A stretch of 38,413 nt of DNA from Burkholderiaceae bacterium (GCA_036405035.1 DASWYJ010000031.1:1-38413); one strand, 5' to 3'; shown: positions 1 to 18,739, counted from the stretch's first letter. A program made the numbers and translations. The notes: generated from the letters alone by a model not told the origin.

Positions 1-1
1 C

Positions 2-769
2 GTGGGGCGGTCGTCCCTTCCCGAGGCAGAAGAGTCGGAAGTAACACGATCCCTGACCGATCCGCGGGAACTGCGCCGTGTCCTCTCGACGCACAACAAG
101 GGCATGCGTCCTGCCGAGATTGAACGCATGGTGTCCACCCTTCTGGCCGAGCGGGAGCTGGGGCGCTCGCTGGAGGCGATCCGCCAGACGGGTGCTACGG
201 TCAATTACACCGGCATGGATGTGCGGAAAGACCGGGAATTTGCCAGTTTTGTGGAGGCGTTGTACCAGCGGCACGGCCGCATCGATGCGGTATTCCATGG
301 TGCCGGTGTCATCGAGGACAAACTGGCCCGAGACAAGAGTTTTGACAGTTTCTCCCGGGTTTTTGATACCAAGGTCAAGCCGGCTCTCGTGTTGTCGGAC
401 TGCATCCGGGACGACGTCAAGTGGGTGGTGTTCTTCTCCAGCGTGGCATCGGTTTTTGGCAACCGTGGGCAGAGCGACTATGCCGCAGCGAATGATGTAC
501 TGGACCGGCTTGCGCGGGGGTGGAACACCCGTCTGCAGGGTGCTGGAAAGGTGCTGGCCGTCAATTGGGGGCCGTGGGCGGGTACGGGGATGGTGTCGGA
601 ATCCCTCGAAAAGGAATATGCCCGGAAGGGGGTCGGGTTGATTCCGCTGGAGCAAGGCGTTTCGGCGCTGCTGGATGAGCTGCGTTTCGGCCAGGATGCG
701 CAATGCGTGCTGATGTGCGGAGCACCGGATGCCTTCGCCGGCAAAGCGGGAGTCGCTGCGGCGGTGTGA
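2..769 (+). CDS. C-terminal ketoreductase (KR) domain of a type I PKS / PUFA-synthase-like protein; 5-prime end lies outside the window
   Basis: The frame is open from the window edge; the M at position 2 is only the first in-frame GTG. SDR/KR signature FSSVASVFGNRGQSDYAAAN is followed by VNWGPWAGTGM, as in PKS KR domains. Stop at 767-769, 5 nt before the next PKS gene. Confidence 0.8.
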   Translation: MGRSSLPEAEESEVTRSLTDPRELRRVLSTHNKGMRPAEIERMVSTLLAERELGRSLEAIRQTGATVNYTGMDVRKDREFASFVEALYQRHGRIDAVFHGAGVIEDKLARDKSFDSFSRVFDTKVKPALVLSDCIRDDVKWVVFFSSVASVFGNRGQSDYAAANDVLDRLARGWNTRLQGAGKVLAVNWGPWAGTGMVSESLEKEYARKGVGLIPLEQGVSALLDELRFGQDAQCVLMCGAPDAFAGKAGVAAAV

Positions 770-774
770 CGCGA

Positions 775-3700
775 ATGGACCGGATTGCAATCATCGGGAT
801 GTCGTGCCTGTTCCCGGGCGCTCCCACATTGGCAGATTACTGGGCCAACATCGTCGGCGGCGTTGACGCCATCTCCGAGGTGCCGAGTGCGCGGTGGGAT
901 GCGTCGTTCTATGAACCCGACTCGCGCGCGGTCGATAGGTTCTACTGTCGGCGCGGTGGCTTCATCGACGATATTGCATCCTTCGATCCGGTCACATTCG
1001 GGGTGATGCCGAAGGCGGCGGACGCTGCCGAACCCGATCAGTTGCTGATGCTGAAGATCGGCCTGGAAGCCCTTCGGGACGCGGGATACCAGAACCGGGA
1101 GTTTGCCCGGCAGCGCACGGGCGTGGTCATCGGCCGTGGCAACTACATCACGGCCGGTGGCGCGCGGCTGGCCCAGCATGTCCGTGTCATTCCCCAGGTG
1201 CTGCTGACCCTCGGTGAACTGTTTCCAGACCTGGGCGCTTCGGCACTGGCACAGGTCAAGGAACGGCTGCTGAGCCAGCTCGACTATTTCGGCCCTGATG
1301 TCGCGGCAGGGATGATCCCGAACCTGGTGGCATCCCGTTTGGCCAACAAGCTGGATCTGCGGGGCCCCGCGTTTACCGTGGACGCGGCCTGCGCAAGCTC
1401 GTTGATTGCGCTGGAACATGCCTGCACCGCGCTACGGTCCGGGCAAACCGACATGATGATGGTTGGTGGCGTCCACGTGTGCCATGACCTGACCTTCTGG
1501 GCAACGTTCTGTCAGCTTGGCGCCTTGTCAAGAACGGGCGTCATCCGGCCGTTCTCTCGGCAGGCGGATGGCATTCTGGCGGGGGAAGGCATCGGCATGG
1601 TGGTGCTGAAGCGACTGGATGACGCGGTGGCGTCGGGCGATCGCATCTATGCCGTCATCGAAGGGGTTGGCTCCGCCAGCGATGGGCGCAGTGGCAGCCT
1701 GATTGCGCCCTCTGCTGACGGACAATTTCTCGCCTTGGAGCGCGCCTGGGCCGGGCTGCCTTTTGCGCCACAGGCAATCGGGTTGCTTGAAGCGCATGGA
1801 ACCGGCACGCCTGCCGGGGATGAGGCCGAGCTGGAAACGGTTGCGCGGTTCTTTGGCCCAACCCGCGGGCCGGCAGAGCGTGCTGTCATGGGCTCGGTCA
1901 AATCCATGATTGGCCACACGATGCCTGCAGCGGGTATTGCCGGCTTGATCAAGGGGGCACTGGCGGTGCACCACGGTGTGCTGCCGCCTTCGCTGCATTG
2001 CGGAGAGCCCCATCCGGGCATGGACCGCACCTGCTTCAGGGTGCTCGGTGAGGCGCGGCCATGGGAAGCGGAGCGAACCGAGCGTATCGCCGGAGTCAAT
2101 GCGTTTGGTTTTGGGGGCATCAACGCCCATGTGGTCATCCGGGGGCATGCCATGCCTGTCATGCCGACACACCGGATCACCAGTCCGGTGCCTGGACTTC
2201 CCCGCGTCATGGCGCTCAGCGCCGACACCCCCGGGCAACTGCTGGAGCGTCTTGCCGCAGGGCAGCGCAACACCGACCCCGGAAACGGTGCCTGTCGCAT
2301 CGCCATTGTTGATCCGGACAGCCGGAAGCTCGAACTGGCGCGCAAGATCATCACCGCCGGACAACCGTGGCATGGACGCAGCGACATGTACTTCACCACG
2401 GGTGGATTGGCCGCGGCGGGTGGAAAAGTCGCTCTGCTGTTCCCGGGCATTGACAGCAGCTTTGCACCGCAAACAGAAGGATTGGCTGCAGCGTTTGGCC
2501 ATCCGGTACCGGAGCACATCCATCAGTCCCACCCATCGGATGGCCTGTTGGGTACGGCATTGGGGGTGCTGGAATTCAACCGGTATCTGTTTGGCATATT
2601 GCAGGACCTGAAGATCCAGCCAGATGCCATTGCAGGTCACAGCATTGGCGAATGGAGCGCCATGCATGCGTCCGGCATGATGATCGGCGAAGGCCTGGAG
2701 GACCGGATTGGTGCCTCCATTGCGGGCAATGCCATCGCGTTTCCAGATGTTCTTTTTCTGGCTGCAGGATGCGATGTACACCGGATGCAGCAGGCGATGC
2801 ACGGCCTCGCCGAGATTTCCGTTTCGCATGAGAACTGCCCACACCAGGCCATTGCATGCGGGCGCAAAAGCAGTATCGAAACCCTGGCATCCCGTTTGCG
2901 GGAGTCGGCCGTTTTTTGCGAAGTGCTTCCCTTCGTGTCAGGTTTCCACTCGCCGTTGTTCAACGAGCATCTCGGGGTGTACCGGGAGTTCTTTGGTGCG
3001 GTGGGGCTCAGCACCCCCCGGACGCCGGTCTGGTCGGCCACGACGGCAACCCCATATCCCGATCACCCCGATGCCGTACGTGACCTGGCGATCGACCATC
3101 TGCTACAGCCCGTACGGTTTCATGCACTGATCGACGCCATGTACGCGGCAGGATGCCGGGTGTTCATCCAGGCAGGCACGGGGTCTCTGGTCGGATTCAT
3201 CGGCGACATCCTGAAAGGGCGACCGCATGTGGCCCTGCATGCCAACCAGGCCAAGCGGAGTGCCGTCGCGCAGCTAACCCATATGAGCGCTGCACTGTGG
3301 GTTGAGGGCCTCGCATTCGATGCCGCGTTGCTGGGAATAGCCAATGCGCTTCCCGGTGCGAGGGATGTGCCACCGGCCGCTGTACCGGAGCGGAAGGGCA
3401 AGTTGCTGGCGCTGGGCGTGCCCTTGGTGCAACTGGGTGCAGGCCTGGATCTGGGCACAGTATCCACGGCAGGGTCGGCCAGGCAACTGGCCGAGCAGGC
3501 GGCGGATCCCGTGCAGCGCATGGTGTTTCATACCATTGCAGAGATCGAGCGTGCCACGCGTGAGGTCTCCCAGTTGTTTGCCCAGCATCAATCCGGAGTG
3601 GGGTCCCGCCATGCCGGCCCAACAGCAGATGCAAGCCGAACTGCGCAACCGGCCCGTGCGGCGGCGGCGCCCGTTCCACCGTCCGGCATCCAGCGCCGTA

Positions 3701-5238
3701 TCCGTCGGGTACTCGACCTCGACACCACGATTCCCTACGTGCGGGACCATGCCCTGCACCCCCAGCGCGAGGGATGGCCGATCATTGCCGACCGCTATCC
3801 TGTTGTCCCCATGACGATGGAGGTCATGCTCGTGCGGGAGGCCGTCGAGGAAACGCTGCCCGGATATGTCGTCGTGGAAGTGCGCGAAATACAGGCGTAC
3901 AGATGGCTCATGGTATCGACACCGTGCAACGTGGACATCGTTGTGCAGTCGCTCGGCACCCATCTGCTGCGGGTCGATATCGAGGGGTATTTCCGGGCGC
4001 AGGTGGAGATTGCCGCAGCATATGCGGCACCTGCTGCCCCCCACGCAGAAGAGCCGCTTGCCGGCCATCGGGAAACCGCAATATCGGCCCAGGCTCTGTA
4101 CCAGGACAACTGGATGTTCCATGGTCCCGCCTACCAAGGGGTGGAGCGGTTCCTGGGTATTGGATCCAATGGCATCGATGGCGATATCCGGGTCCCGGAC
4201 GGCAAGGGGGCGCTGCTCGACAATATGGGGCAACTGGCGGGCTACTGGGTAATGGAACAGCCAGACAATTGCCTCGCCATGCCCATTGGTGTGGGGAAGA
4301 TCCGGTTCCACGGGCCTGACCCGTTGCCTGGTCAGCGCGTCACCAACAAGGTCAGGGTCCGGCAGCTGGATGCGGATACCTGCATCACCGACCACGTGCT
4401 GCGGGATGTTGACGGCAAGGCCAGCATCTCCATCGAAGGGTGGGCGACGCGGCGCTACCGGATGGACCGCAGCATGTGGGCGAACAGCCGGCAATTGCCC
4501 ATCTCCAGGTTTTCGCAGCCACTCACGGATGGTGTGATGGTTTTCAACGATGTCCACGACACGGCGATCATGCGGGATCATCTGGCGTGCCGTTACCTCT
4601 CGCAACCGGAAGTGCTGGTGTACGAACAGTTGCCACCACGGCGCAAGCGTCAGTGGCTCAGTGGGCGTGTTGCGGCCAAGGATGCCGTGCGCGACTTCCT
4701 GGCATCCAGCCAGGGGGTTCTGCGCGTTTTTCCGAAAGAAATGCGGATAGAAAACGATGCTGCGGGCGCCCCCCGGGTTGTGGCCCACGTCACCAACACC
4801 GTTCCATCCCATCTCCGGCTGTCGATTGCCCATAAGGCGGGTATCGCCGTCGCATTGGCATCGGATGGTGCGGTAGGTGTCGATGTCGAGGTGATCGAAC
4901 CGCGTCCCGACAGCTTTGTGGCCATGGTCTGCTCGGAGGCGGAGTGGCGTCTGCTGGATGGCGATGATCGGGATACCGCGGCTACCCGTGCCTGGGTTGC
5001 CAAGGAAGCGGTTGCGAAATCACTGGAAATCGGCATGGGCGCCAACCTGCGCAGCCTGGTGGTCGAGGCGGTGGATGGACCACGCGTCAAGATCGGACGG
5101 CACTGGGTTCACACCGCGCGGGTAGGCCAACATATTGTGGGCTGGACGCAGGAACATGACGCCGTCGGCACGACAATACGGGCCCCGGTTCTGCGCACCC
5201 AGGAGGGGATTGCGCACCAAGAAAAACAAGGAAGTTGA
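775..5238 (+). CDS. Type I polyketide synthase, domain order KS-AT-DH-PPTase (about 1487 aa)
   Basis: Start set at ATG 775 (MDRIAIIGMSCLFPGAP, a canonical KS N-terminus) rather than track start 703, which overlaps the upstream gene. KS ~775-2140: DAACASS (Cys codon 1390-1392), EAHGTGT, GSVKSMIGHT, NAFGFGGINAHVVI. AT ~2420-3260: LLFPGIDSSF, GHSIGEW (Ser codon 2641-2643), VSGFHSPLF. PKS-type DH ~3690-4470: VRDHALHP (His codon 3748-3750), FHGPAYQGV, LLDNMGQLAGYW. C-terminal 4-phosphopantetheinyl transferase ~4540-5110: VGVDVEVIE and WVAKEAVAKS motifs. No ACP, KR or ER motif seen inside this ORF. Confidence 0.9.
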   Translation: MDRIAIIGMSCLFPGAPTLADYWANIVGGVDAISEVPSARWDASFYEPDSRAVDRFYCRRGGFIDDIASFDPVTFGVMPKAADAAEPDQLLMLKIGLEALRDAGYQNREFARQRTGVVIGRGNYITAGGARLAQHVRVIPQVLLTLGELFPDLGASALAQVKERLLSQLDYFGPDVAAGMIPNLVASRLANKLDLRGPAFTVDAACASSLIALEHACTALRSGQTDMMMVGGVHVCHDLTFWATFCQLGALSRTGVIRPFSRQADGILAGEGIGMVVLKRLDDAVASGDRIYAVIEGVGSASDGRSGSLIAPSADGQFLALERAWAGLPFAPQAIGLLEAHGTGTPAGDEAELETVARFFGPTRGPAERAVMGSVKSMIGHTMPAAGIAGLIKGALAVHHGVLPPSLHCGEPHPGMDRTCFRVLGEARPWEAERTERIAGVNAFGFGGINAHVVIRGHAMPVMPTHRITSPVPGLPRVMALSADTPGQLLERLAAGQRNTDPGNGACRIAIVDPDSRKLELARKIITAGQPWHGRSDMYFTTGGLAAAGGKVALLFPGIDSSFAPQTEGLAAAFGHPVPEHIHQSHPSDGLLGTALGVLEFNRYLFGILQDLKIQPDAIAGHSIGEWSAMHASGMMIGEGLEDRIGASIAGNAIAFPDVLFLAAGCDVHRMQQAMHGLAEISVSHENCPHQAIACGRKSSIETLASRLRESAVFCEVLPFVSGFHSPLFNEHLGVYREFFGAVGLSTPRTPVWSATTATPYPDHPDAVRDLAIDHLLQPVRFHALIDAMYAAGCRVFIQAGTGSLVGFIGDILKGRPHVALHANQAKRSAVAQLTHMSAALWVEGLAFDAALLGIANALPGARDVPPAAVPERKGKLLALGVPLVQLGAGLDLGTVSTAGSARQLAEQAADPVQRMVFHTIAEIERATREVSQLFAQHQSGVGSRHAGPTADASRTAQPARAAAAPVPPSGIQRRIRRVLDLDTTIPYVRDHALHPQREGWPIIADRYPVVPMTMEVMLVREAVEETLPGYVVVEVREIQAYRWLMVSTPCNVDIVVQSLGTHLLRVDIEGYFRAQVEIAAAYAAPAAPHAEEPLAGHRETAISAQALYQDNWMFHGPAYQGVERFLGIGSNGIDGDIRVPDGKGALLDNMGQLAGYWVMEQPDNCLAMPIGVGKIRFHGPDPLPGQRVTNKVRVRQLDADTCITDHVLRDVDGKASISIEGWATRRYRMDRSMWANSRQLPISRFSQPLTDGVMVFNDVHDTAIMRDHLACRYLSQPEVLVYEQLPPRRKRQWLSGRVAAKDAVRDFLASSQGVLRVFPKEMRIENDAAGAPRVVAHVTNTVPSHLRLSIAHKAGIAVALASDGAVGVDVEVIEPRPDSFVAMVCSEAEWRLLDGDDRDTAATRAWVAKEAVAKSLEIGMGANLRSLVVEAVDGPRVKIGRHWVHTARVGQHIVGWTQEHDAVGTTIRAPVLRTQEGIAHQEKQGS

Positions 5239-5520
5239 ATGAATTCGCAATATGACAACACGTTGGCCACGGTTGTTTCGACCATTCGCACGGCAATCGA
5301 CGAAGACTGGATTCACGATTGGGATATCCATGCGGAAACCCGCTTGAGCAGTGACCTCGAACTCGACAGCATTGAATTTGTCAAGATTGCCGATGCGCTG
5401 CAGGTGCATTACGGGGCACGCATCAACATGGTGCAGTGGTTGTCGGGGAAGAACATGGATGAACTCATCAACATGACCGTTGGTGATATCGCGGCATTCA
5501 TTGCATCCGCAGCAAGCTAG
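5239..5520 (+). CDS. Discrete acyl carrier protein (93 aa)
   Basis: ATG immediately follows the PKS stop (TGA 5236-5238). Carrier-protein attachment motif DLELDSIEFVKIADAL (DSI/L serine), with size and helical pattern typical of an ACP. Confidence 0.85.
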   Translation: MNSQYDNTLATVVSTIRTAIDEDWIHDWDIHAETRLSSDLELDSIEFVKIADALQVHYGARINMVQWLSGKNMDELINMTVGDIAAFIASAAS

Positions 5521-5528
5521 AGCGTCCG

Positions 5529-6686
5529 GTGGCGAGAGTCCTGTTTGTTGTTCCCCCGCTGGTCGGCCATCTGAATCCGGCGCTGGCGGTTGCTTCCGTG
5601 CTGGAGGCCGCAGGGCACACGGTTGCGTGGTGTGTTCATGCGGAGATCATCGGTGACCGGCTCCCGCGTGGGGCAACCGTGTTTCCCATCCGCAGCGTAG
5701 CCGGGGTGGATTTCATCGCGCGCTCATCGGATTTGCGTGGTCTGGAGAGCGTTCGCTTCTTTCTGGACGAGTTCGTGATGCCCATGGCGAGCGATTCCCT
5801 GTCCGTGATCGAGCGCGCAGTGGACGGATTTCTCCCGGATCTGATGGTGGTCGACCACCAGATGGTTGCCGGGGCACTGGTCGCACGCAAGCGTGAGCTG
5901 CCCTGGTTGTCACTGGTCACGACCACGGCATCCATACTGAAACTTCTGCCATCCCACGACGCTTGGGTCGAGGCGCAATATGGGCGCCTGCAGCAGGGAT
6001 ATCTGCCCCCGTCGCGGATCGTGGCCCGGCCTGATTTCTCTCCCGATGCGGTGGTGGTCTTCTCCGTCGACATGCTGGTCGGGGACGCCTATGAGCGGTT
6101 TGACGCTCCCTATGTCTTCGTGGGGCCGTCTGGCGGCGTAGGGCAGCGCGATGTGGCATTTCCCTGGGAATGGCTGGAGCCCGGCCGGAAGAAGCTGCTC
6201 GTGACGCTCGGCACCTTGAGCCGTGATCGTGAAACACGATTCTTTGATGTGGTGGCTGCCGCCCTGGCCGAACTGGATATCCAGGCCGTTTTTGTGGCAC
6301 CGGAGTCGATGATCGGGCGGGTGCCTGCCAATGTACTGGTGCGGTCTTACGTGCCCCAGCATGCATTGCTGCCGCACATGGATGGCGTGATCTGCCATGC
6401 GGGACACAATACCGTGTGTGAAAGCCTCGCAGCCGGATTGCCGCTGATCGTGGCGCCCATACGGGATGACCAGCCCATCGTGGCCCGGCAAGTGGCCCGG
6501 GCCGGTGTGGCAATCCCCGTACGCTACGGCAAGGTTACGCCTGTCGGAGCAAAAAAAGCCATCGAGCAACTGGTCGGTGATCAGGAGATGGCCCGGAAAG
6601 CGCGTGCGGTGGCCCGCCAGTTTGCGGACGCCCCCGGTCCGCATGGCGTGTTGCCGATCGTGGATCGGTTGTGTGTGCCCGTTTGA
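5529..6686 (+). CDS. GT1-family (MGT / UDP-glycosyltransferase-like) glycosyltransferase
   Basis: GTG start giving MARVLFVVPPLVGHLNPALAVA, a typical GT-B N-terminus. C-terminal nucleotide-sugar binding signature HAGHNTVCESLAAGLPLIVAPIRDDQP. Confidence 0.85.
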   Translation: MARVLFVVPPLVGHLNPALAVASVLEAAGHTVAWCVHAEIIGDRLPRGATVFPIRSVAGVDFIARSSDLRGLESVRFFLDEFVMPMASDSLSVIERAVDGFLPDLMVVDHQMVAGALVARKRELPWLSLVTTTASILKLLPSHDAWVEAQYGRLQQGYLPPSRIVARPDFSPDAVVVFSVDMLVGDAYERFDAPYVFVGPSGGVGQRDVAFPWEWLEPGRKKLLVTLGTLSRDRETRFFDVVAAALAELDIQAVFVAPESMIGRVPANVLVRSYVPQHALLPHMDGVICHAGHNTVCESLAAGLPLIVAPIRDDQPIVARQVARAGVAIPVRYGKVTPVGAKKAIEQLVGDQEMARKARAVARQFADAPGPHGVLPIVDRLCVPV

Positions 6687-6701
6687 TGTGGTGAGATCCG
6701 G

Positions 6702-7496
6702 ATGAAAATGATCGATGTCGACGGGGCCCGGCTGGCTTCGCTGGAAATGGGGAGTGGCCGCACTACGGTGTTTGTCCATGGGCTGGCCTTTGGCAGCATG
6801 GCGCTGTGGTACATGACCGGTGTGACGGCGCTGTCGGATGCACGCCGTATCGTGCTGTATGACCAGCGGGGGCATGGCAACAGCAGCGAGGCTGCGGCCG
6901 GATTCGATCTGGATACGCAGGCAAACGATCTCGATGCCGTGGTACGCAGCTATGTAGGGGACGATGAAACCATTGACCTCGTCGGGCACAGCATGGGCGG
7001 CTTGATCGCAATGCACTATGCCATGCGGTGGCCCGAAAAGGTTCGCCGCTGCGTGGTGGTGGATGCCGGTGTACCGGCGTCCCAGTACATGCTTCCGGGT
7101 TTGCAGGCAATACAGTCTGAAGACGCCCTGAATGCTTACCTGGACAGCCCGTACAGCATCAGCCCGGGCCTGGGGGGGCGCCGCCGGGAACGCGTGTTCC
7201 AGCGGCTCAAAGGCCTGTTTTTTGAGTCAACGATGATCCAGGATGTGGCTGCGATGCAGACCCCTCCGCCCGAAGACATGACACGCCTGCGTATGCCCGT
7301 GCTGCTGGTATACGGCCGGACATCGCCTTTCATTCCCGCAGCCCATTTTCTGCTGGAGCATCTCCCTTGTGCGCAGTTGGCGCTCCTGGAGTGTGGGCAC
7401 CGGATAACGCGCGAGGCACCGGCTGCCCTGTTCGCCGAAATCGGGCGCTTTCTGCAGCCGGCGGCGGCGGTGGATGCATCCGCCGCGCGCACGTGA
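6702..7496 (+). CDS. Alpha/beta-fold hydrolase (possible thioesterase/esterase)
   Basis: VFVHGLAFGS oxyanion region, nucleophile elbow GHSMGG, C-terminal His in ECGHRITREAP. Sits 15 nt after the GT gene. Confidence 0.8.
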   Translation: MKMIDVDGARLASLEMGSGRTTVFVHGLAFGSMALWYMTGVTALSDARRIVLYDQRGHGNSSEAAAGFDLDTQANDLDAVVRSYVGDDETIDLVGHSMGGLIAMHYAMRWPEKVRRCVVVDAGVPASQYMLPGLQAIQSEDALNAYLDSPYSISPGLGGRRRERVFQRLKGLFFESTMIQDVAAMQTPPPEDMTRLRMPVLLVYGRTSPFIPAAHFLLEHLPCAQLALLECGHRITREAPAALFAEIGRFLQPAAAVDASAART

Positions 7497-7498
7497 CG

Positions 7499-8725
7499 AT
7501 GCAGACATCCATGGCAACGGTTGCACAACCTGTGTATTCACGGCCGCTGTCTGGCATCGAGCGGTATTCGCTCATGTTCCATGCGGTGTGCCGTTACCAC
7601 GTGGATGCCATTTTGCAGGGGCAGGGTGATCTGAGCGCCGCCGAATTGCGCATGGCCGTGGCAACTGCCGCAGAGGCCAATCCGGGGGTTCGGGTCCGCT
7701 TGCGGGGCATTCTGGGCTGGGCGCGTTGGGTGGACAGTGGCATCGCTCCCGTCGTGCATGTGGTCGAATCGAGCAACTGGACAGGTTCCAGCGGGGAAGG
7801 GGCAGACTTTCTGTCCACCGCGCTGGACGCGATACGAGGGGGGCCGGTTGCCGATCTGTTTCTTGTCCGCTGTGCGGATCAGCAGTTGCGCATTGTTTTC
7901 CGAAGTGTGCATGCGGCGATTGACGGCCGCGGGATCATGCACTGGATCCAGGACATCTTCCGTGTCTTGCGGGGCGACCCTCCTATTGGTTCCCACTCGA
8001 CACTGACCGACGGCGATGTCCAGGCCCGTTACCGTGACCGCCTGCAGCACAGCGGCTTCACGCCGTTGCCGCCGGCCGACACCATTCCGGTTATTTCAGC
8101 AGGAACAGCGACCGGGCCGCTGGACTACATCTGGCGGCGTGTTGTGCTGCCTAAAAGTCCATCGGGTCTGCTGGCACGGAGCGCCGTTTTTCTTGCGCAA
8201 TGGGCAAGGCAATCCGGGCCGGGGGAGGTCCGGTTTACGATTCCTGTGGACTACCGGGGCTTGCGAACGGATGAAATGGGCGTTGGCAATCTCACCGGAT
8301 TCCTGAAGTTGTGCGTGGAGCCCACGGACACGCATCGCAGCCTGACGCTTCGCCTGAGTCAGCTGGTGAAAGCCTATGCCGATTGTTACCAATCCCGCGA
8401 GATTCCCGTGATACGGTGGCTGCCGCTGCGGTTTCTCGTATCCAAGCTGCGGGAGCGCCTGAATACCCTGTTGTTCAAGCTGAACCACGACATGCCCAGT
8501 GGCGGTATTGTGTCGATGGGTTCACCCGACATGGCCCGCTATTCGTGTGCGGGTTTTCGGGCGGAATATCTGTACGGAATCCCCGGCTTCGTGGGGAAAC
8601 TGAATGTCGTATTTCTTTCCTATGCCGATTTTGCTGTGGTGACATTTGCCGCTCCGGCCGCATACAACGACCAAAAGCAGTTCGACGCCCTGATCCACGC
8701 TTATGAGGCCCATTTTTCATCATGA
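7499..8725 (+). CDS. Stand-alone condensation-domain-like (HxxxDG) acyltransferase, paralog 1
   Basis: Start set at ATG 7499, 2 nt after the hydrolase stop (track start 7367 overlaps the hydrolase). Catalytic-type motif VHAAIDGRG (His codon 7910-7912), as in NRPS C domains and the PapA5 / WS-DGAT acyltransferases. Clearly paralogous to 13027-14262. Confidence 0.65.
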   Translation: MQTSMATVAQPVYSRPLSGIERYSLMFHAVCRYHVDAILQGQGDLSAAELRMAVATAAEANPGVRVRLRGILGWARWVDSGIAPVVHVVESSNWTGSSGEGADFLSTALDAIRGGPVADLFLVRCADQQLRIVFRSVHAAIDGRGIMHWIQDIFRVLRGDPPIGSHSTLTDGDVQARYRDRLQHSGFTPLPPADTIPVISAGTATGPLDYIWRRVVLPKSPSGLLARSAVFLAQWARQSGPGEVRFTIPVDYRGLRTDEMGVGNLTGFLKLCVEPTDTHRSLTLRLSQLVKAYADCYQSREIPVIRWLPLRFLVSKLRERLNTLLFKLNHDMPSGGIVSMGSPDMARYSCAGFRAEYLYGIPGFVGKLNVVFLSYADFAVVTFAAPAAYNDQKQFDALIHAYEAHFSS

Positions 8726-9942
8726 ATGAAGTTGATCTGAACCGTTTGCGTATCCACCGCAACGCCGAATCGCCCGGCATCCGGCGCCAACCCCGGCGCT
8801 GGCTGTGGCCCGTGCTGGCGCTGCTGGCTGTGGGGGCCATCGGGGGCTATTTCATTCAGAACCCACCGGCCACCACTGTCCAGACGACCCAGGCCGTGAC
8901 GGCATTCCCTTCCTCGCAGTTCGTTGCGTTGAATGCGACCGGATACGTGGTTGCCCGGCGCAAGGCCTCGGTTGCCTCCAAAGGAACCGGGCGGCTGGAG
9001 TGGCTGGGTGTGACTGAAGGCAGCAAAGTGAAGGCGGGGGAGTTGATCGCCCGGCTCGAGAGTCGTGATGTGTCGGCATCCCTGCAGAGTGCGACAGCCA
9101 ACAATGATGTAGCGCTGGCCTCCATCGCATCGGCCAATACCGAATTGGCCGATGCACAGCAGAACCTCCGGCGGGTTGAAGACCTGTTTCAGAAGCAATT
9201 CGTTTCACAGACTGCATTCGATGATGCCAAGTCGCGGGTTGCCCGTGCCCTGGCGGCAACGAACAGTGCCAAGGCATCCCAGGCAGCGTCCAAGGCAAAT
9301 GAAAGCTTTGCACGCAACGCGGTCGAGTACACCAACATTCGCGCGCCATTCGATGGAGTCGTGATTTCCAAAACCGCCAATGTGGGGGATGTCGTCACGC
9401 CGCTGTCGTCCGCCGCAGACGCCAAGGGAGCCGTTGTGGTGATCGCTGATCTTGGCACGCTGGAAGTGGATGCCGATGTTTCCGAATCGGCGCTTGCCAG
9501 CATCGTGATAGACCAGCCGTGCATCATTGTTCTGGATGCCTTTCCGAAGGAACGTTGGCGCGGCCGTGTGAGCACCATTGTCCCGACGGTCAAACGCTCC
9601 AGTGCAACCGTCACCGTGAAGGTACAGATCATGGATCTGGATGCACGCATCCTGCCGGACATGAGCGCCAAGGTCAGCTTTCTGACACAACCGGTCGATC
9701 TGGCGACGGATTTGCCGGCCGTGGCTGTCAATCCCGCTGCGATCGTGCGCGAAGGAACGCAGGCTTTTGTTTTTCGCGTGGAGCCGGATGCAACCGTCCA
9801 GCGCATCCCGGTCACCCCGGGTGTGAAATCCGGTGATGTGCAATTTGTCGCCGGCGCACTGAAGGCTTCCGATGTCCTGGTGGTGTCGCCTTCGGATGGA
9901 ATGAAATCCGGAGCCCGGGTCCGTGTCGCGGACCGGAAATGA
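8722..9942 (+). CDS. HlyD-family periplasmic adaptor (membrane fusion protein), DevB/MacA-like
   Basis: ATGA start/stop overlap with the preceding gene. N-terminal TM segment WLWPVLALLAVGAIGGYF, a coiled-coil hairpin region (AQQNLRRVEDLFQK...), a lipoyl/beta-barrel pattern (APFDGVVISK) and a C-terminal beta domain. Confidence 0.85.
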   Translation: MNEVDLNRLRIHRNAESPGIRRQPRRWLWPVLALLAVGAIGGYFIQNPPATTVQTTQAVTAFPSSQFVALNATGYVVARRKASVASKGTGRLEWLGVTEGSKVKAGELIARLESRDVSASLQSATANNDVALASIASANTELADAQQNLRRVEDLFQKQFVSQTAFDDAKSRVARALAATNSAKASQAASKANESFARNAVEYTNIRAPFDGVVISKTANVGDVVTPLSSAADAKGAVVVIADLGTLEVDADVSESALASIVIDQPCIIVLDAFPKERWRGRVSTIVPTVKRSSATVTVKVQIMDLDARILPDMSAKVSFLTQPVDLATDLPAVAVNPAAIVREGTQAFVFRVEPDATVQRIPVTPGVKSGDVQFVAGALKASDVLVVSPSDGMKSGARVRVADRK

Positions 9943-9943
9943 C

Positions 9944-10630
9944 ATGACTTCACTGATCTGCGCAGCCGGGCTGGGCAAGACCTACTGGCGTGGCAGGCTC
10001 GCGGTGCCGGTGCTGCTGGATGTCAATCTGGATATCCAGGCTGGTGAATACGTGTCGTTAATGGGGCCGTCCGGGTCCGGAAAAAGCACCCTGCTCAACC
10101 TGATTGCCGGCATCGACAAACCCACCGCTGGAAGCCTCCATATTGCCGGAGTCAACATGGTGGAGTTGTCGGAGAAGGAGTTGTGTGCCTGGCGTGCGCA
10201 GCATGTCGGCTTCATTTTCCAGCTCTACAACCTCATGCCGGTTCTCACGGCATTCGAGAATGTAGAGTTGCCGCTGTTGCTGACCGGGCTGACCCGTCGT
10301 GAACGGCGCGAGCATGTCGAAATGGCATTGGCGATGGTGGGGCTCGGTGATCGCCTGGACCACCATCCGAACCAGTTGTCCGGAGGCCAGCAGCAGCGTG
10401 TGGCTATCGCCCGTGCGCTGGTGTCGGACCCTACCCTGATCGTGGCCGACGAGCCCACAGGAGATCTTGATCGCACCTCTGCCAATGAGGTGCTGCAGCT
10501 GCTGGATCGCCTGAACAGCGAAATGGGGAAAACCATCGTGATGGTGACCCATGATCCCAAGTGCGCGGCCCGCGCCACCCGCCAGATTCATCTGGACAAA
10601 GGGGTGTTGTTGTCCGCGATGCCGGAATAG
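9944..10630 (+). CDS. ABC transporter ATP-binding protein (DevA/LolD/MacB-NBD-like)
   Basis: ATG 9944 lies 1 nt after the adaptor stop (9940-9942); track start 9923 is a GTG overlapping that gene. Walker A GPSGSGKST, signature LSGGQQQRVAIARAL, Walker B LIVADEPTGDLD. Confidence 0.9.
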   Translation: MTSLICAAGLGKTYWRGRLAVPVLLDVNLDIQAGEYVSLMGPSGSGKSTLLNLIAGIDKPTAGSLHIAGVNMVELSEKELCAWRAQHVGFIFQLYNLMPVLTAFENVELPLLLTGLTRRERREHVEMALAMVGLGDRLDHHPNQLSGGQQQRVAIARALVSDPTLIVADEPTGDLDRTSANEVLQLLDRLNSEMGKTIVMVTHDPKCAARATRQIHLDKGVLLSAMPE

Positions 10631-10646
10631 CACGTACCGCATCAAC

Positions 10647-11813
10647 ATGCATATCTGGTACATCCTGCGGCTGGCCGTCAAAAACATGTGGCGGCATTGG
10701 CTGCGAACCGCGCTCACCATGGTGGGGATCGCTGTGGCAATCGCTGCGTTCGGCCTTTTGCAGACGGTCGTCGATGCGTGGCTGGCGGGGGTCGAGACGG
10801 CATCGTCTGCCCGGCTGATCACGCGGAACAAGGTATCGCTCACCTTTCCGCTGCCGGTTACGCATATTGAAAGCCTGCGAAGAATCAAAGGGGTCCAGTC
10901 AGTCAGCTGGGCCAACTGGTTTGGGGGAATCTATATCGATGAGCGGCGCTTTTTCCCTCAGTTCGCCGTGGACGCACGCAGCTATTTCCACGTCTATCCG
11001 GAGTACGAAGTCCCCGAACACGAAATGGCAGAGTTTCTACGCGACCAGCGTGGCGTCGTGGTGGGCCGCAAGGTTGCCAGTGACTACGGTTGGCGGGTAG
11101 GTGATCAGGTTGCGCTGAAAGGAACCATTTATCCGGGGGCCTGGAGTTTCACGGTGCGGGGTATCTACCACGGGGCGGACAGCAAGGTCGACGAAACACA
11201 GTTCCTCTTCCATTGGGATTACCTGAACGAAATGGTGAAAAGCCTGTTGCCATCACGGGCAGACAAGGTGGGCGCGATCATCGTGTATCTCGAGAATCCC
11301 GCCATGGCAGCTTCCGTGGCAACGGAAATCGACGAGACGTTCCGTAACTCGCTGGCCGAAACACTCACTGAAACCCAGAAATCCTTTCAGCTGGGGTTTG
11401 TCGCCATGGTCGATACGATCCTGACCACGATCCAGGTGGTTTCCTTTGCTGTCATTCTCATCATCATGGCGGTCATGGCGAACACCATGGTCATGACGGC
11501 GCGCGAGCGCTCCCGCGAGTATGCGACGCTCAAGGCGCTGGGATTCCACGACCGGTCGGTTTTTGGGCTCATCCTTGCGGAATCTCTGTTGATCGCTGGC
11601 GTGGGTGGGGCAATAGGGGTAGCCTGGTGTTTTCCGTTGGCCCAGCTCTTCCATGAAGCCAGTGGGCGGATGTTTCTCGTTTTCGAGATCAGTTCCACCA
11701 CGGTGGTGCTGCAGTTGGCGGGAGCCGCATTGGTCGGGGTGGTGGCCGCGTTGTATCCCGCCTGGGCCAGTTCCCGCATTCGCGTTGTCGACGGCCTGCG
11801 TGCGGTGACATGA
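10647..11813 (+). CDS. ABC transporter permease, MacB-periplasmic-domain + FtsX type, copy 1
   Basis: Start set at ATG 10647 (MHIWYILRLAVKNMWRHWLRTALTMVGI). One N-terminal TM, a large periplasmic domain and a C-terminal FtsX-type three-TM bundle with RERSREYATLKALGF and YPAWASSRIRVVDGLR. Confidence 0.85.
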   Translation: MHIWYILRLAVKNMWRHWLRTALTMVGIAVAIAAFGLLQTVVDAWLAGVETASSARLITRNKVSLTFPLPVTHIESLRRIKGVQSVSWANWFGGIYIDERRFFPQFAVDARSYFHVYPEYEVPEHEMAEFLRDQRGVVVGRKVASDYGWRVGDQVALKGTIYPGAWSFTVRGIYHGADSKVDETQFLFHWDYLNEMVKSLLPSRADKVGAIIVYLENPAMAASVATEIDETFRNSLAETLTETQKSFQLGFVAMVDTILTTIQVVSFAVILIIMAVMANTMVMTARERSREYATLKALGFHDRSVFGLILAESLLIAGVGGAIGVAWCFPLAQLFHEASGRMFLVFEISSTTVVLQLAGAALVGVVAALYPAWASSRIRVVDGLRAVT

Positions 11814-12979
11814 ATTCGCTTGCCATTGCGTATGCGGCGCGCAACCTGCGCGCGCGAAAGATAACCACGCTGCTGACCGTCGTGGGCATGGTGCTGGTGG
11901 CGGGTATTTTTGCCGTCGTGCTCATGCTCACCGAAGGGTTGCGCCAAACGCTGGCGGGTACCGGCTCCTACAACAATGTGGTGATTACCCGGCAGGGAAC
12001 TCTCACGGAAACCCAGAGCACGATCGAGCGGGCCCAGGCCAACCTCATCGAGACCTTTCCTGGCCTGGCCGCCGATGGCGACGGCCGCGGTATCGTTTCG
12101 CGGGAGGTGGTTGTTCTGGTGAACCTGCTGAAGAAGGGCACCAACACACCCGCCAATGTGCTCATTCGAGGAACGACACCGAATGGGCTGGCGATGCGAA
12201 GCCAGGCGCACATCGTGAGCGGTCGCATGTTTCGGCCAGGCACCTCGGAAATCATTGTGGGCAATGGCATATTCCGGAATCACCAGGGCACCACGATCGG
12301 CAGCAAGCTGTCGTTCGGTTTGCGCGAATGGACGGTGGTCGGTGTGTTCGATGCGGGAACCAGTGGATTCAATTCCGAGGTCTGGGGCAATACCGAGCAG
12401 ATGATGCAGGCGTTCCGGCGCGAAGCGTTCTCCTCGGTCATTGGCCGCTTGCGTGACAGCGGGGCCATGGACGAGTTGGTGGCGGCGATCCGGGCAGATC
12501 AGCGGCTCAAGCTGGAGCTCAAGCGCGAGTCGATCTTCTATGCAGACCAGGCAGAGAAGCTGTCCAATTTCATCGACATATTCGGAAAAACCATCACGGC
12601 GGTGTTTTCGATTGCCGCGATCATCGGGGCCATGATCACGATGTATTCAAGTGTGGCCAACCGGACGCGGGAGATCGGAACCTTGCGCGCGCTCGGTTTT
12701 GGGCAGCGGGCCATCGTCGGGGTTTTTCTCTGTGAAGCGGTGCTGTTGGGCGTGGTGGCAGGCTGTTTGGGTCTGAGCCTGGCGTCGGGTGCGCAGTGGG
12801 TGGAGGTATCCACCACGAATTTCCAGACCTTCTCCGAAATCTCCTTCCGGCTGAGCCTCACACCGGCCATCGGGTTTCAGGTGCTGGCATTTTCTGTGTT
12901 CATGGGCGTATTGGGTGGCGTTCTGCCAGCGGTGCGTGCGGCGCGGCTCGAGATCGTGGACGCATTGCGGGCTGTCTAG
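11810..12979 (+). CDS. ABC transporter permease, MacB-periplasmic-domain + FtsX type, copy 2
   Basis: ATGA overlap with copy 1. Same architecture: ARNLRARKITTLLTVVGM, RTREIGTLRALGF, LPAVRAARLEIVDALR. Confidence 0.85.
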   Translation: MNSLAIAYAARNLRARKITTLLTVVGMVLVAGIFAVVLMLTEGLRQTLAGTGSYNNVVITRQGTLTETQSTIERAQANLIETFPGLAADGDGRGIVSREVVVLVNLLKKGTNTPANVLIRGTTPNGLAMRSQAHIVSGRMFRPGTSEIIVGNGIFRNHQGTTIGSKLSFGLREWTVVGVFDAGTSGFNSEVWGNTEQMMQAFRREAFSSVIGRLRDSGAMDELVAAIRADQRLKLELKRESIFYADQAEKLSNFIDIFGKTITAVFSIAAIIGAMITMYSSVANRTREIGTLRALGFGQRAIVGVFLCEAVLLGVVAGCLGLSLASGAQWVEVSTTNFQTFSEISFRLSLTPAIGFQVLAFSVFMGVLGGVLPAVRAARLEIVDALRAV

Positions 12980-13026
12980 CGCCAAAGCTGCGGCCCTCCT
13001 GTTCCCATCCCTTACTAGAGAGGCGT

Positions 13027-14262
13027 ATGCCAGGCAATCTCACATTGGAACCGACGCGGCAAATATCACGGCGGTTGACCACGCCCGAGTACTACCACGC
13101 ATGTATCGGAGAAAGCAACCGCACCATCGAGCCACCCCGGGAAGCCATCTTTGTACTGACGGGCGAGGGGCATGTCGCCCCTGAAACATGGCGCGGGGCA
13201 TTGGATGCGGTCGCGGAAGCCAACCCGGGCCTGCGCCTGCGCATCGTGGGTTCGCGCATGGGCACCCGGTGGCAGAGTGATGGCCTGACCACTCCCGTGC
13301 GTGTTGTCGCCGATCCCCAATGGGACGGGCAGTCCGAGGAGGGCTCCGCGTTCATCTACGAAACCCGATTGAATCTGCATGCGGGTCCTGCAACGGAGCT
13401 GATCATTGCACCCCAGGCTTCCGGACGCACGCTGGTGATTTTCCGCGCGCTGCATGCCGTGATGGATGGGCGTGGTGTACGGCATTTCCTGTACGAATTG
13501 TTCCGGGCCCTGCGCGGCGAACCTTTGTTGGGTACCAACGTCGCTTTCGGCGATGCCGACCTGATGAAAGAGGTGGGGCCATCGCACTCGACATCCCGGC
13601 ATGTGCCATCTGTTGCCCTGACCGGGGGCCAGCGCGGCGCCCTGCAAGGGGATACCTGGAGGCGGCTGACATTCCCCTTGCCCCAGCACGACATCCTGGC
13701 CCGTACCGCCAGTGCGATGGCGGCGTATGCACATCGGCATGCAAATGGAACCGCGCTGATTGCCGTCCCGGTCGATCTCCGGCGGCACATGCCCGCGATC
13801 CAGTCGACCCTGAACTTCAGCAGCATGCTGCTCGTCCCCATGCAACCCGGCGATGGGCCTGACGTATTCAAACGCGGGCTGCGCAACATGCTGGAGCAGA
13901 AAATGGAGGCGCGGTATCCACGGCTCCTGGATTGGGTCCGGCTGCTGCCGCTACCGTGGCTTGACGCGCTGGTTTCGCGCACCCCCCGGAATTACGTGAA
14001 CAAACGCCTGATGGAGACGGTGCTGATTTCCAATCTGGGGGTATTCGATCTGGGGACAATGCACGGCGCAGGCTTTTCCACCGACAACATCTTTTGCCTT
14101 CCGCTGGGCGGGAATGCATGCTGTGTCCTGGCCGGAACGGACCGGCATGTGGAGATGACCGTCTGTCTGTCGCAGGTGCTGGCCAGCGATGGGCGGATGG
14201 ATGACCTGATCCGGTTCCTTCGCGAATCGCTGTCTGTGAACCCGGATAAATCCAGCGCCTGA
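13027..14262 (+). CDS. Stand-alone condensation-domain-like (HxxxDG) acyltransferase, paralog 2
   Basis: Start set at ATG 13027 (MPGNLTLEPT) with a purine-rich stretch upstream. Motif LHAVMDGRG (His codon 13453-13455). Aligns by eye with paralog 1: AEANPGLRLR vs AEANPGVRVR, LFRALRGEP vs IFRVLRGDP, VPVDLRR vs IPVDYRG. Confidence 0.65.
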   Translation: MPGNLTLEPTRQISRRLTTPEYYHACIGESNRTIEPPREAIFVLTGEGHVAPETWRGALDAVAEANPGLRLRIVGSRMGTRWQSDGLTTPVRVVADPQWDGQSEEGSAFIYETRLNLHAGPATELIIAPQASGRTLVIFRALHAVMDGRGVRHFLYELFRALRGEPLLGTNVAFGDADLMKEVGPSHSTSRHVPSVALTGGQRGALQGDTWRRLTFPLPQHDILARTASAMAAYAHRHANGTALIAVPVDLRRHMPAIQSTLNFSSMLLVPMQPGDGPDVFKRGLRNMLEQKMEARYPRLLDWVRLLPLPWLDALVSRTPRNYVNKRLMETVLISNLGVFDLGTMHGAGFSTDNIFCLPLGGNACCVLAGTDRHVEMTVCLSQVLASDGRMDDLIRFLRESLSVNPDKSSA

Positions 14263-14421: not shown

Positions 14422-14937
14422 TTACTTGACCGTGACCTCGATCGTCTTGCTCAGGGCTTCGCCGTACGACTGGTGTGCGCCATTGGCGAACTGGGCCGTC
14501 AGCTTGTACTTGCCGGGGGCCAGCTTCACTTCGGCTTCGGTCTGGGCCTTGCCGTAGTGCAGGTGGGTTTCATCCATCGGGATCGACTGGCCTTCGGCAA
14601 TCGGACCCGTATTGATCAGCAGGTGATGGTGGCCCGAGCCCGCCACGATGGCGCCAGCGGGTTCCACCTTCAGGCCGTCAATGCCGAACTTGACCTTGAA
14701 CGGCGACGATACGGTGGCACCGTCTGCGGGTTCCAGGATCGACACCGAGCCCGTGACTGCAGGGGCGGCCGATGCGGGCGCCGACGCCGGTGCGGCAGCA
14801 GGAGCGGGCGCAGGTGCCGGTGCGGCGGCAGGGGCCGGTGGCGGCTCGGCCTTGTTGCAGCCCGCCAGCACGCCGAGACCCAGGGTGGTCACGGCTGCGA
14901 TGGCCAGAAAATGTTTGGCAGATTTCTTGATTTGCAT
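14422..14937 (-). CDS. Lipoprotein, DUF4399-like, with a Pro/Ala-rich linker
   Basis: Signal peptide plus lipobox LGVLAGC. Linker PPPAPAAAPAPAPAPAAAPASAPASAAPA. C-terminal domain carries GSGHHHLLINTGP, a pattern I associate with DUF4399. Confidence 0.7.
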   Translation of the reverse strand: MQIKKSAKHFLAIAAVTTLGLGVLAGCNKAEPPPAPAAAPAPAPAPAAAPASAPASAAPAVTGSVSILEPADGATVSSPFKVKFGIDGLKVEPAGAIVAGSGHHHLLINTGPIAEGQSIPMDETHLHYGKAQTEAEVKLAPGKYKLTAQFANGAHQSYGEALSKTIEVTVK

Positions 14938-14995
14938 TCGAAACTCCTCGAAATTTTGGTACTGGGGTTCAGACTCTATACCAACGCGATTGACG

Positions 14996-15069
14996 TGGAG
15001 CGGGTGAAGGGAATCGAACCCTCGTATGAAGCTTGGGAAGCTGCCGTTCTACCATTGAACTACACCCGC
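14996..15069 (-). tRNA. tRNA-Gly (anticodon CCC)
   Basis: Reverse complement reads GCGGGTG TA GTTC AATGGTA GAAC G GCAGC TTCCCAA GCTTC ATAC GAGGG TTCGATT CCCTT CACCCGC TCCA. This is a full cloverleaf with encoded CCA, nearly identical in layout to E. coli glyU. There is one C-U mismatch in the anticodon stem. Confidence 0.93.
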
Positions 15070-15889: not shown

Positions 15890-16127
15890 CGGAAAGGGCT
15901 GCGGCGCTTGTGCTCCCGGGATGGGCCGGGCGCAGCCAGATCAGCACAAGGGCAACTGACCGCGCGACCATGGCGTTGTTTCTGCTTTTCCTTCGGGCTT
16001 TGGGCCCGCAGTAGCCCGGGCAAATTGCCCGCACCGCTGTAGAGGGCCTTTTTCCTGACCTGTCGTGCCTAGCATGGTGTCCGGTTCGTCGTGCGGCGGA
16101 CCGTATCCAACAAAACAGGAGCGGGAC

Positions 16128-18701: not shown

Positions 18702-18739
18702 TCGGAACAGCCTTGTGGTTCCGACCACAAGGCTGCGCC

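Follow-up and report, generated by a model that had tools for sequence, protein, structure and literature searches.

A ketosynthase-acyltransferase-dehydratase-phosphopantetheinyl transferase fusion in a Burkholderiaceae bacterium is probably one subunit of a two-protein secondary lipid synthase

Locus organization

The DNA analysed here is a 38,413-nt stretch from a Burkholderiaceae bacterium (GCA_036405035.1, DASWYJ010000031.1:1-38413; hereafter the window, meaning the whole stretch). Near its start lies a gene for a 1487-aa protein, ORF2, which joins a ketosynthase (KS2), an acyltransferase (AT), a polyketide synthase (PKS)-type dehydratase (DH) and a 4'-phosphopantetheinyl transferase (PPTase) in one open reading frame (ORF). 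We give a probability of roughly 75% to the reading that ORF2 belongs, as the second of two subunits, to a PfaA-related iterative type I fatty-acid/polyketide (secondary lipid) synthase of Type M/N/O, working by the mechanism proposed below. Its partner subunit would be the product of the gene immediately upstream, of which the window holds the 3' end.

Features of the locus are collected in Table 1. The ATG of ORF2 lies 5 nt past the stop of the upstream gene; an alternative in-frame ATG at 703 would give a 67-nt overlap with that gene. At the downstream junction the TGA of ORF2 abuts the ATG of the gene for a 93-aa acyl carrier protein (ACP) with no gap, and the ACP gene is translationally coupled to ORF2.

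Table 1 Genes and domains of the lipid cluster in the window.
Feature	Position (nt)	Strand	Evidence
Upstream megasynthase gene, 3' end (255 aa), cut by window start	2-769	+	Pfam KR 2.7e-30
ORF2, KS2-AT-linker-DH-PPTase, 1487 aa	775-5238	+	Gene-caller product P0241
KS2 and KS C-terminal extension	778-2256	+	PF00109, PF02801, PF16197; Cys206, His341, His381
AT, predicted non-malonyl type	2407-3324	+	PF00698 weak/partial; GHSIGEW (Ser623), SGFHS (His725)
Post-AT linker with low-complexity Ala/Pro/Arg	3337-3714	+	Poor conservation, no PP-binding match
PKS-type double-hotdog DH	3727-4524	+	PS-DH 1e-8; His992, FHGP 1115-1118, Asp1149...Gln1153
Sfp-type PPTase, two-lobed, ~200 aa	4567-5154	+	ACPS 2.2e-12; AGAP, LSIAH, VGVDVE, WVAKEAVAK
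Discrete ACP, 93 aa	5239-5520	+	PP-binding 3.5e-5; DLELDSIEF serine motif
GT1 (macrolide-GT-like) glycosyltransferase	5529-6686	+	Pfam EryCIII-like_C, UDPGT; TIGR01426 MGT 5.7e-47, below cut-off
Alpha/beta hydrolase, GHSMG nucleophile elbow; candidate thioesterase/acyl-release enzyme	6702-7496	+	Abhydrolase_1, Abhydrolase_6, weak Thioesterase
Free-standing condensation-fold acyltransferase, 404 aa, HAAIDGRG	7511-8725	+	AF2 and Foldseek
Exporter membrane-fusion protein	8722-9942	+	Pfam, NCBIfam
Exporter ABC ATPase	9923-10630	+	Pfam, NCBIfam
Exporter MacB/FtsX permeases, two	10551-11813; 11810-12979	+	Pfam, NCBIfam
Second condensation-fold paralogue, HAVMDGRG, start codon uncertain; final cluster gene	13027-14262	+	Pfam Condensation 0.07

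Domains and catalytic residues of ORF2

An earlier sequence-only reading had proposed the order KS-AT-DH-PPTase for the 1487-aa protein. Pfam, AlphaFold2 (AF2) and Foldseek all bear this out, and every motif quoted in that reading is present. The Pfam search matched KS, AT (weakly), PS-DH and ACPS. The ketosynthase matches were 4.5e-68 for the N-terminal half and 2e-33 for the C-terminal half, plus KAsynt_C_assoc; the Acyl_transf_1 match was weak and partial (1.4e-9, 38 bits, profile positions 82-266 only). Conservation of individual residues was scored in an alignment of 68 full-length ORF2 relatives from at least six phyla.

Within KS2, Cys206, His341 and His381 are kept wherever they are aligned (66-67 of 68 sequences, the remainder being gaps). 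Because the active-site Cys is retained, KS2 is predicted to be an intact Cys-His-His enzyme and not a chain-length factor (CLF). It is a paralogue distinct from the ketosynthase of the partner subunit (KS1), with identities of 0.60 within KS2, 0.66 within KS1 and 0.46 between the two.

The AT keeps its Ser-His dyad, Ser623 and His725 being invariant in all 68 relatives, but it is non-canonical, as had been noted from the motif LLFPGIDSSF (residues 554-563). A family-wide F(L/V)FPG(V/L)(E/D), which reads LLFPGID in ORF2, stands where GQGSQ would be expected, and the column aligned to Arg117 of FabD (from T. thermophilus) is occupied by L/I/V/M/N/G across the relatives. The two marks of a malonyl-CoA:ACP transacylase (MAT), GQGSQ and an Arg about 25 residues past the active Ser, are thus both missing from the ORF2 AT. 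ATs without an Arg of the FabD Arg117 type do not select dicarboxylic extender units. Since both the carboxylate-binding Arg and GQGSQ are absent, the ORF2 AT probably moves a monocarboxylic acyl group and not malonyl.

In the DH, His992, Asp1149 and Gln1153 are invariant (68/68). In the PPTase, Lys1410 is invariant and Asp1370, Glu1372, Glu1411 and Lys1415 are kept in 66-67 of the 68 relatives; these residues fall in the motifs VGVDVE (residues 1367-1372) and WVAKEAVAKS (residues 1407-1416). All four domains of ORF2, judged by these residues, are intact and under constraint.

The C-terminal part was modelled with AF2 over residues 1036-1487 from an 18-sequence alignment (mean pLDDT 84.5, pTM 0.80). 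The DH-PPTase query behind the model (nt 3880-5235) begins 44 residues past His992, leaving out the first DH strands, and the conservation of His992 was accordingly read from the full-length alignment. Foldseek searches of the Protein Data Bank (PDB) matched the C-terminal ~200 residues to Sfp-type PPTases, with human AASDHPPT (2cg5) at E 3.6e-10 and Sfp (4mrt) at a TM-score of 0.69 and a root-mean-square deviation of 3.6 A over 219 columns; PcpS and PptT were matched too, and target-normalized scores (TMt) were 0.59-0.69 for 2cg5, 4mrt, 7bcz and 4qjk. The N-terminal part of the model matched the DH domains of AlnB, MlnB, CurJ and RzxB (E ~1e-7 to 1e-6). With its two-lobed fold and the motifs (V/I)G(V/I)D(V/I)E and W/FxxKE(A/S)xxK, the modelled C-terminus of ORF2 is an Sfp-type (group II) PPTase fold, as the sequence-only reading had anticipated, and PPTase activity is predicted for it.

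Carrier domains and the upstream partner subunit

No carrier protein had been seen between AT and DH in the earlier reading, only a low-complexity linker, and our searches agree. Conservation within ORF2 is lowest in the AT-DH linker (residues ~855-980), with a top-residue frequency of 0.16-0.37 and gaps up to 55% among the 68 relatives; this linker contains a low-complexity stretch at residues ~940-975 (nt ~3590-3700). Pfam PP-binding found nothing in the whole ORF at E<=0.01 or in the linker at E<=10. Because the PP-binding search was negative and the linker is poorly conserved, we conclude that ORF2 contains no cryptic ACP. A hidden Markov model (HMM) of the family's discrete ACPs likewise matched nothing in ORF2, but this result is not relied on because the positive control failed, the model having found just 2 of 74 ACP domains in partner subunits.

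The ketoreductase (KR) that had been placed at the end of the preceding ORF is there (Table 1). This 3' end matches positions 2056-2262 of the PfaA profile TIGR02813 and is 40-60% identical to the upstream KR ends of relatives. To assess synteny, window proteins were mapped onto 82 related loci (cited by L numbers where they need to be told apart). A KR-ending gene lies directly upstream of KS2 in all 72 loci with enough sequence. By Pfam the L001 homologue of this gene reads NMO(ER)-KS-AT-PP-binding x2-KR, NMO marking an enoyl reductase (ER), and the L003 homologue has a canonical GQGSQ, an Arg at AT Ser+25 and two Pfa-type LSIDSIKR carrier domains. The full ER-KS-MAT-ACPx2-KR set was seen in L001, L003 and L085. 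A Pfam DH domain was found in none of the partner subunits scanned (L001 and the type I PKS of Beijerinckia).

These relatives suggest that the carrier domains sit in a partner subunit of the form ER-KS-MAT-ACPx2-KR, of which the window shows only the KR. The earlier statement that the stand-alone gene supplies the only ACP holds inside the window, but reflects the position of the window edge, since the upstream subunits of relatives carry two ACPs. Because the partner gene is always upstream and carries tandem ACPs, ORF2 is not expected to be a self-sufficient trans-ACP synthase, and the proposal of a self-priming, trans-ACP iterative enzyme gives way to a two-subunit one.

A rival model along these lines would make ORF2 a variant enediyne PKS (PKSE), iterative, self-contained and self-priming, that uses the 93-aa ACP in trans and borrows the KR of the preceding protein. 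PKSEs have the order KS-AT-ACP-KR-DH-PPTase in one polypeptide; they are iterative type I enzymes related to polyunsaturated fatty acid (PUFA) synthases, and their PPTase primes the carrier domain of the same synthase. ORF2 has KS, AT, DH and PPTase, shares with PKSEs a C-terminus in which an integrated Sfp-type PPTase comes after a PKS-type DH, and is translationally coupled to an ACP gene. Unlike in a PKSE, neither an ACP nor a KR lies between its AT and DH, the KR being on the other subunit, and the system as a whole has an ER and a second KS. The upstream gene of relatives brings its own KS, malonyl-specific AT, two ACPs and ER, while the AT of ORF2, with neither the malonyl-binding Arg nor GQGSQ, is poorly suited to extender loading. 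Genes beside PKSEs in enediyne warhead cassettes include a hotdog thioesterase; the conserved neighbours here are the ACP, a hydrolase and a glycosyltransferase (GT), which are not PKSE companions, although no models specific to the warhead cassette were run. Streptomyces relatives (~35% identity) share this ACP-hydrolase-GT context and hence are not PKSEs either. PKSEs are set apart here by domain description; the AT of the PKSE DynE8 appeared as a weak PDB match (2e-6). On balance a PKSE-like enzyme is improbable, and we continue with the two-subunit synthase.

Distribution and synteny of the family

With the DH-PPTase part of ORF2 as the query, we found 151 relatives in a set of 5.8 billion proteins and at least 571 in GTDB contigs (one genome per species), covering at least six phyla. 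A representative library gave ~290 clusters at 50% identity (E<=1e-30), many of them of 1350-1600 aa and matching at the C-terminus. The closest DH-PPTase relative among the matches listed comes from a Cellvibrionales metagenome-assembled genome (MAG) at 54% identity, making the ORF2 of the window a fairly divergent member (<=54% identity in its DH-PPTase part). Matches of 440-700 aa that looked like stand-alone DH-PPTase proteins were rejected as such, their contigs showing fragmented or frameshifted KS-AT-DH-PPTase genes in the same synteny; the Ars-type DH-PPTase described below is the exception.

The related loci come from Gamma-, Beta- and Alphaproteobacteria, Myxococcota, Actinomycetota (Streptomyces, Frankia, Amycolatopsis), Bacteroidota (Dyadobacter, Chitinophaga, Niabella) and Acidobacteriota. 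KS-AT-DH-PPTase is a single ORF in 67 of the 82 loci, most others being truncated by contig ends or frameshifted. In 80 of 81 loci the next gene after the PPTase encodes an ACP of ~90 aa, and the serine motif DLELDSIEF is kept across 82 discrete-ACP homologues. The alpha/beta hydrolase is found in 66/68 loci, often duplicated, and a GT lies within 4.5 kb of the PPTase in the same proportion (66/68). The cassette is co-inherited. RefSeq routinely gives such genes generic product names, as on a plasmid of Streptomyces sp. NBC_00984 that carries the same cassette.

Two Acidobacteriaceae MAG loci (L032, L063; ~8400-11470) have an AT-DH-PPTase without KS2 straight after the KR-ending gene, with ACP, hydrolase and GT still downstream. 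Accessory genes differ by lineage, as among L001, L009, L010, L012, L084 and L086. They include LCM or class I S-adenosylmethionine methyltransferases and, in L083, an extra short-chain dehydrogenase/reductase; Myxococcota and Betaproteobacteria have a second alpha/beta hydrolase, and L017 and L022 have as many as three GT genes. Such variation implies a family of related, differently decorated products.

Relation to known systems

The layout of these genes is not new. The sequence-only reading had called it unusual, but Shulse & Allen 2011 (File S1, PMC3098273) already list the same three-gene arrangement, ER-KS-MAT-ACP2-KR, KS-AT-PPTase and ACP, as Types M/N/O. It is given there for Frankia alni, Frankia CcI3, EAN1pec, Renibacterium salmoninarum, Chryseobacterium gleum, Dinoroseobacter shibae, Streptomyces avermitilis, Gloeobacter violaceus and Actinosynnema mirum, with Chitinophaga pinensis entered as KS-PPTase, and the types are described as 'secondary lipid synthases with uncharacterized products' (PMC3098273). 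The window shares with them a KS-AT-PPTase in one polypeptide and a discrete ACP directly downstream, and Frankia, Streptomyces and Chitinophaga recur among our related loci with the same synteny. The PPTase motifs agree as well. PPTases of Types M-T are assigned the motif classes x(G/D)xP and hShxH (PMC3098273); in ORF2, AGAP fits P1a x(G/D)xP and LSIAH fits P1b' hShxH, while the PUFA-type FNxSH is not present. The Gly, Pro, Ser and His columns of these motifs are invariant or nearly so in the 18-sequence alignment. Differences are that the 2011 table gives no DH between AT and PPTase, where one is clearly present here; that the order in the window is ACP-GT-hydrolase against ACP-hydrolase-GT; and that the window has, in addition, genes for two condensation-fold acyltransferases and for a MacB-type exporter. 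ORF2 is therefore a member of a known and widespread kind of secondary lipid synthase whose product is uncharacterized.

The nearest characterised likeness is partial, with the architecture documented but the ArsA/ArsD pair lacking the KS-AT. In the ars system of Azotobacter vinelandii (Type P), ArsA and ArsD build C22-C26 acids; the synthase of the C23-C25 acids is given as ArsA, and the PPTase acting on it as ArsD (PMC4824345). For domain content we read the Type P DH-PPTase from the Beijerinckia indica homologue and not from A. vinelandii ArsD. Plasmid pBIND02 of B. indica (NC_010578.1, 24719-42468, L085) encodes a 2674-aa ER-KS-AT-ACPx2-KR protein, two type III PKS genes, a 629-aa PS-DH + ACPS protein 29% identical to the DH-PPTase of the window over 479 aa, and a GT with an ABC permease/ATPase/adaptor set. 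Common to the window and Ars-type systems are the ER-KS-MAT-ACP-KR partner and a DH-PPTase fusion for dehydration and priming. In the Ars type, by contrast, KS-AT is missing from in front of the DH-PPTase, the cluster lacks a discrete ACP, and two type III PKS genes between the synthase genes build a phenolic head group; the scanned ORFs of the window yielded no type III PKS. The DH-PPTase fusion is thus the constant partner of the PfaA-like subunit, and in the family of the window KS2-AT is fused in front of it, in the place where ars-type clusters have their type III PKS genes. The plasmid that carries the L085 cluster is 67 kb in size, and B. indica is not reported to produce phenolic lipids; the gene content of the cluster hints at a glycosylated, exported alkylresorcinol-type lipid.

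In the heterocyst glycolipid island of Nostocales (hglE/F/G/D/C/A/B, hglT; DevBCA/HgdD; Type F), as proposed for the window, a PfaA-like iterative tandem-ACP synthase produces a very-long-chain lipid, which is then glycosylated and leaves through a membrane-fusion protein, an ABC ATPase and a permease. The membrane-fusion protein of the window has a sub-threshold match to the DevB family TIGR02971. The island differs in that it contains KS-CLF-AT and an ACP-thioester reductase, keeps ER, KR and PPTase separate and has no KS-AT-DH-PPTase (PMC3098273), and no thioester reductase was seen in the window.

The PfaABCDE systems raise the question whether the synthase could make PUFAs such as eicosapentaenoic- or docosahexaenoic-like acids. 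KS2 and the upstream KR have PfaA (TIGR02813) as their best NCBIfam model, the tandem ACPs of partner subunits carry the Pfa-type LSIDSIKR, and an NMO/PfaD-type ER is present, fused in the partner. Yet the PfaA match reaches 457 bits against a cut-off of 1010, and in a scan of the library ORF2 passed no NCBIfam model. The cluster genes scanned contain neither a CLF nor the FabA-like DH/isomerase pair of PfaABCDE, the only DH being of PKS type; KS2 keeps its active-site Cys, which a CLF would not; and the PPTase is fused, not free. Shulse & Allen 2011 moreover place these types in a branch apart from the PUFA producers (PMC3098273). A PUFA synthase is accordingly a very remote prospect, the least probable of the alternatives considered.

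Proposed pathway

The synthase of Type M/N/O to which we assign ORF2 would work in four stages. In the first, the ORF2 PPTase would convert the two tandem Pfa-type ACPs and the 93-aa ACP from apo to holo form; we propose this because its catalytic residues are intact and ArsD offers a precedent. In the second, the ER, KS1, malonyl-specific MAT, ACPs and KR of the partner and the DH of ORF2 would together provide a full reducing cycle and build up an acyl chain that is long and for the most part saturated, in the way that ArsA/ArsD build C22-C26 acids. The domain complement and homology point to this, the ORF2 DH being the sole dehydratase of the system. In the third and weakest step, KS2, the Arg-less AT and the discrete ACP may form a hand-over or terminal-extension module, in the slot of the two type III PKS genes of an Ars-type cluster. 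Finally, gene content suggests release by the alpha/beta hydrolase and glycosylation by the GT1 enzyme. In the gammaproteobacterial subgroup the two condensation-fold acyltransferases would also esterify the product and the MacB-type ABC system export it. From this gene content we predict an envelope or extracellular very-long-chain glycolipid as the end product.

The third stage can be read the other way round within the same two-subunit synthase. KS2-AT-ACP would then be a start module, its AT loading onto the discrete ACP a primer of the monocarboxylic kind (acetyl, or else a medium-length or long acyl group supplied by CoA or by type II fatty-acid synthase), with KS2 performing the first condensation and KS1 those that follow. 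ATs without the carboxylate-binding Arg are typical of loading modules, a pattern that the ORF2 AT fits, and the separate conservation of KS2 and KS1 as paralogues would suit a division of labour by chain length. Against this, ArsA-type systems begin without such a module, the KS2-AT slot is that of chain-terminating type III PKS genes in Ars-type clusters, and the discrete ACP adjoins release and tailoring genes. None of these points is decisive, and computation does not separate a priming from a terminal role of KS2-AT-ACP. We consider a start module unlikely, though more credible than a PKSE-like enzyme, and retain the hand-over module in the proposed pathway.

Several observations weigh against the pathway as a whole. 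The window shows only the KR of the upstream subunit, and we infer its ER-KS-MAT-ACP2 content from relatives. ArsA and a DH-PPTase seem to be enough for the synthesis of C22-C26 acids, which leaves the need for a second KS-AT and ACP unexplained, and the two Acidobacteriaceae loci do without KS2. The condensation-fold genes and exporter occur in only ~6 of 56 loci and so fall outside the conserved core. No Type M/N/O product was found in the literature searched, and the hand-over and tailoring/export steps are predicted only.

A bolder version, which we put forward tentatively as somewhat less likely to be right than wrong, is that the five-gene cassette (ER-KS-MAT-ACP2-KR, KS-AT-DH-PPTase, ACP, hydrolase and GT; at least 571 species) makes an undescribed class of very-long-chain glycolipids, with KS2, the Arg-less AT and the ACP acting as a new hand-over module and, in the subgroup of the window, the two condensation-fold enzymes building an acylated glycolipid for MacB-type export. 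If so, the module would accept the completed chain from the Pfa-type ACPs and pass it on for release and glycosylation, doing what type III PKSs do in Ars systems. A 2026 paper counts few known secondary lipids, namely heterocyst glycolipids, phenolic lipids, zeamines, fabclavines, megapolipeptins and chitinimines, and we found no product assigned to this cassette in the literature searched. With the architecture tabulated in 2011, it is the product chemistry, probably that of a glycolipid, that is of interest now. What our analysis adds for the family is the DH between AT and PPTase, an AT predicted not to be malonyl-specific, and the placement of KS2-AT in the type III PKS slot. The cluster in the window is compact (~14 kb visible) and has its own exporter, and is therefore a reasonable candidate for heterologous expression.

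Condensation-fold proteins, exporter and flanking genes

Two genes for ~400-aa condensation-fold proteins, both with an intact HxxxDG motif, flank the exporter genes, an arrangement kept in the closest gammaproteobacterial relatives. The first protein (404 aa) has no Pfam match of its own, but 12 of 26 members of its family match Condensation (best 1.3e-5). Its AF2 model (pLDDT 93) has the fold of a free-standing NRPS-type condensation domain, with AzeD (8s6l) as the best Foldseek match at a query-normalized TM-score (TMq) of 0.77, and also matches MokA, SrfA-C and CDA condensation domains; His134 and Asp138 are invariant in the family, whose members include proteins from Solimonas, Hydrocarboniphaga and Aquirhabdus. 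The second, at 13027, matches Condensation weakly (E 0.07) over the HxxxDG region, and a paralogue stands at the same position after the permeases in L005-L008 and L013. Some UniRef relatives of these ~400-aa proteins are named 'Condensation domain-containing protein'. The pair probably makes ester or amide links from a carrier-bound acyl chain. The exporter between them (8722-12979) is MacAB/DevBCA-like and syntenic in the closest relatives (L003, L005-L008, L013).

The G+C content of the lipid cluster (window 1-14262) is 0.59-0.63, against 0.66-0.71 for the housekeeping genes to its right (15000-38413), among them AlaRS, aldehyde dehydrogenase, SLT, MoxR and ETF. A tRNA-Gly(CCC) gene lies at 14996-15069 on the minus strand, ~700 nt beyond the end of the cluster. 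The lower G+C of the cluster and its ending near tRNA-Gly suggest that it is a horizontally acquired island. Between the cluster and a histidine kinase gene (18185-20119) are genes for a DUF4399 protein (14422-15048, minus strand), a DUF3047 protein (16065-17306, plus strand) and a Sel1-repeat protein (17310-18701, plus strand).

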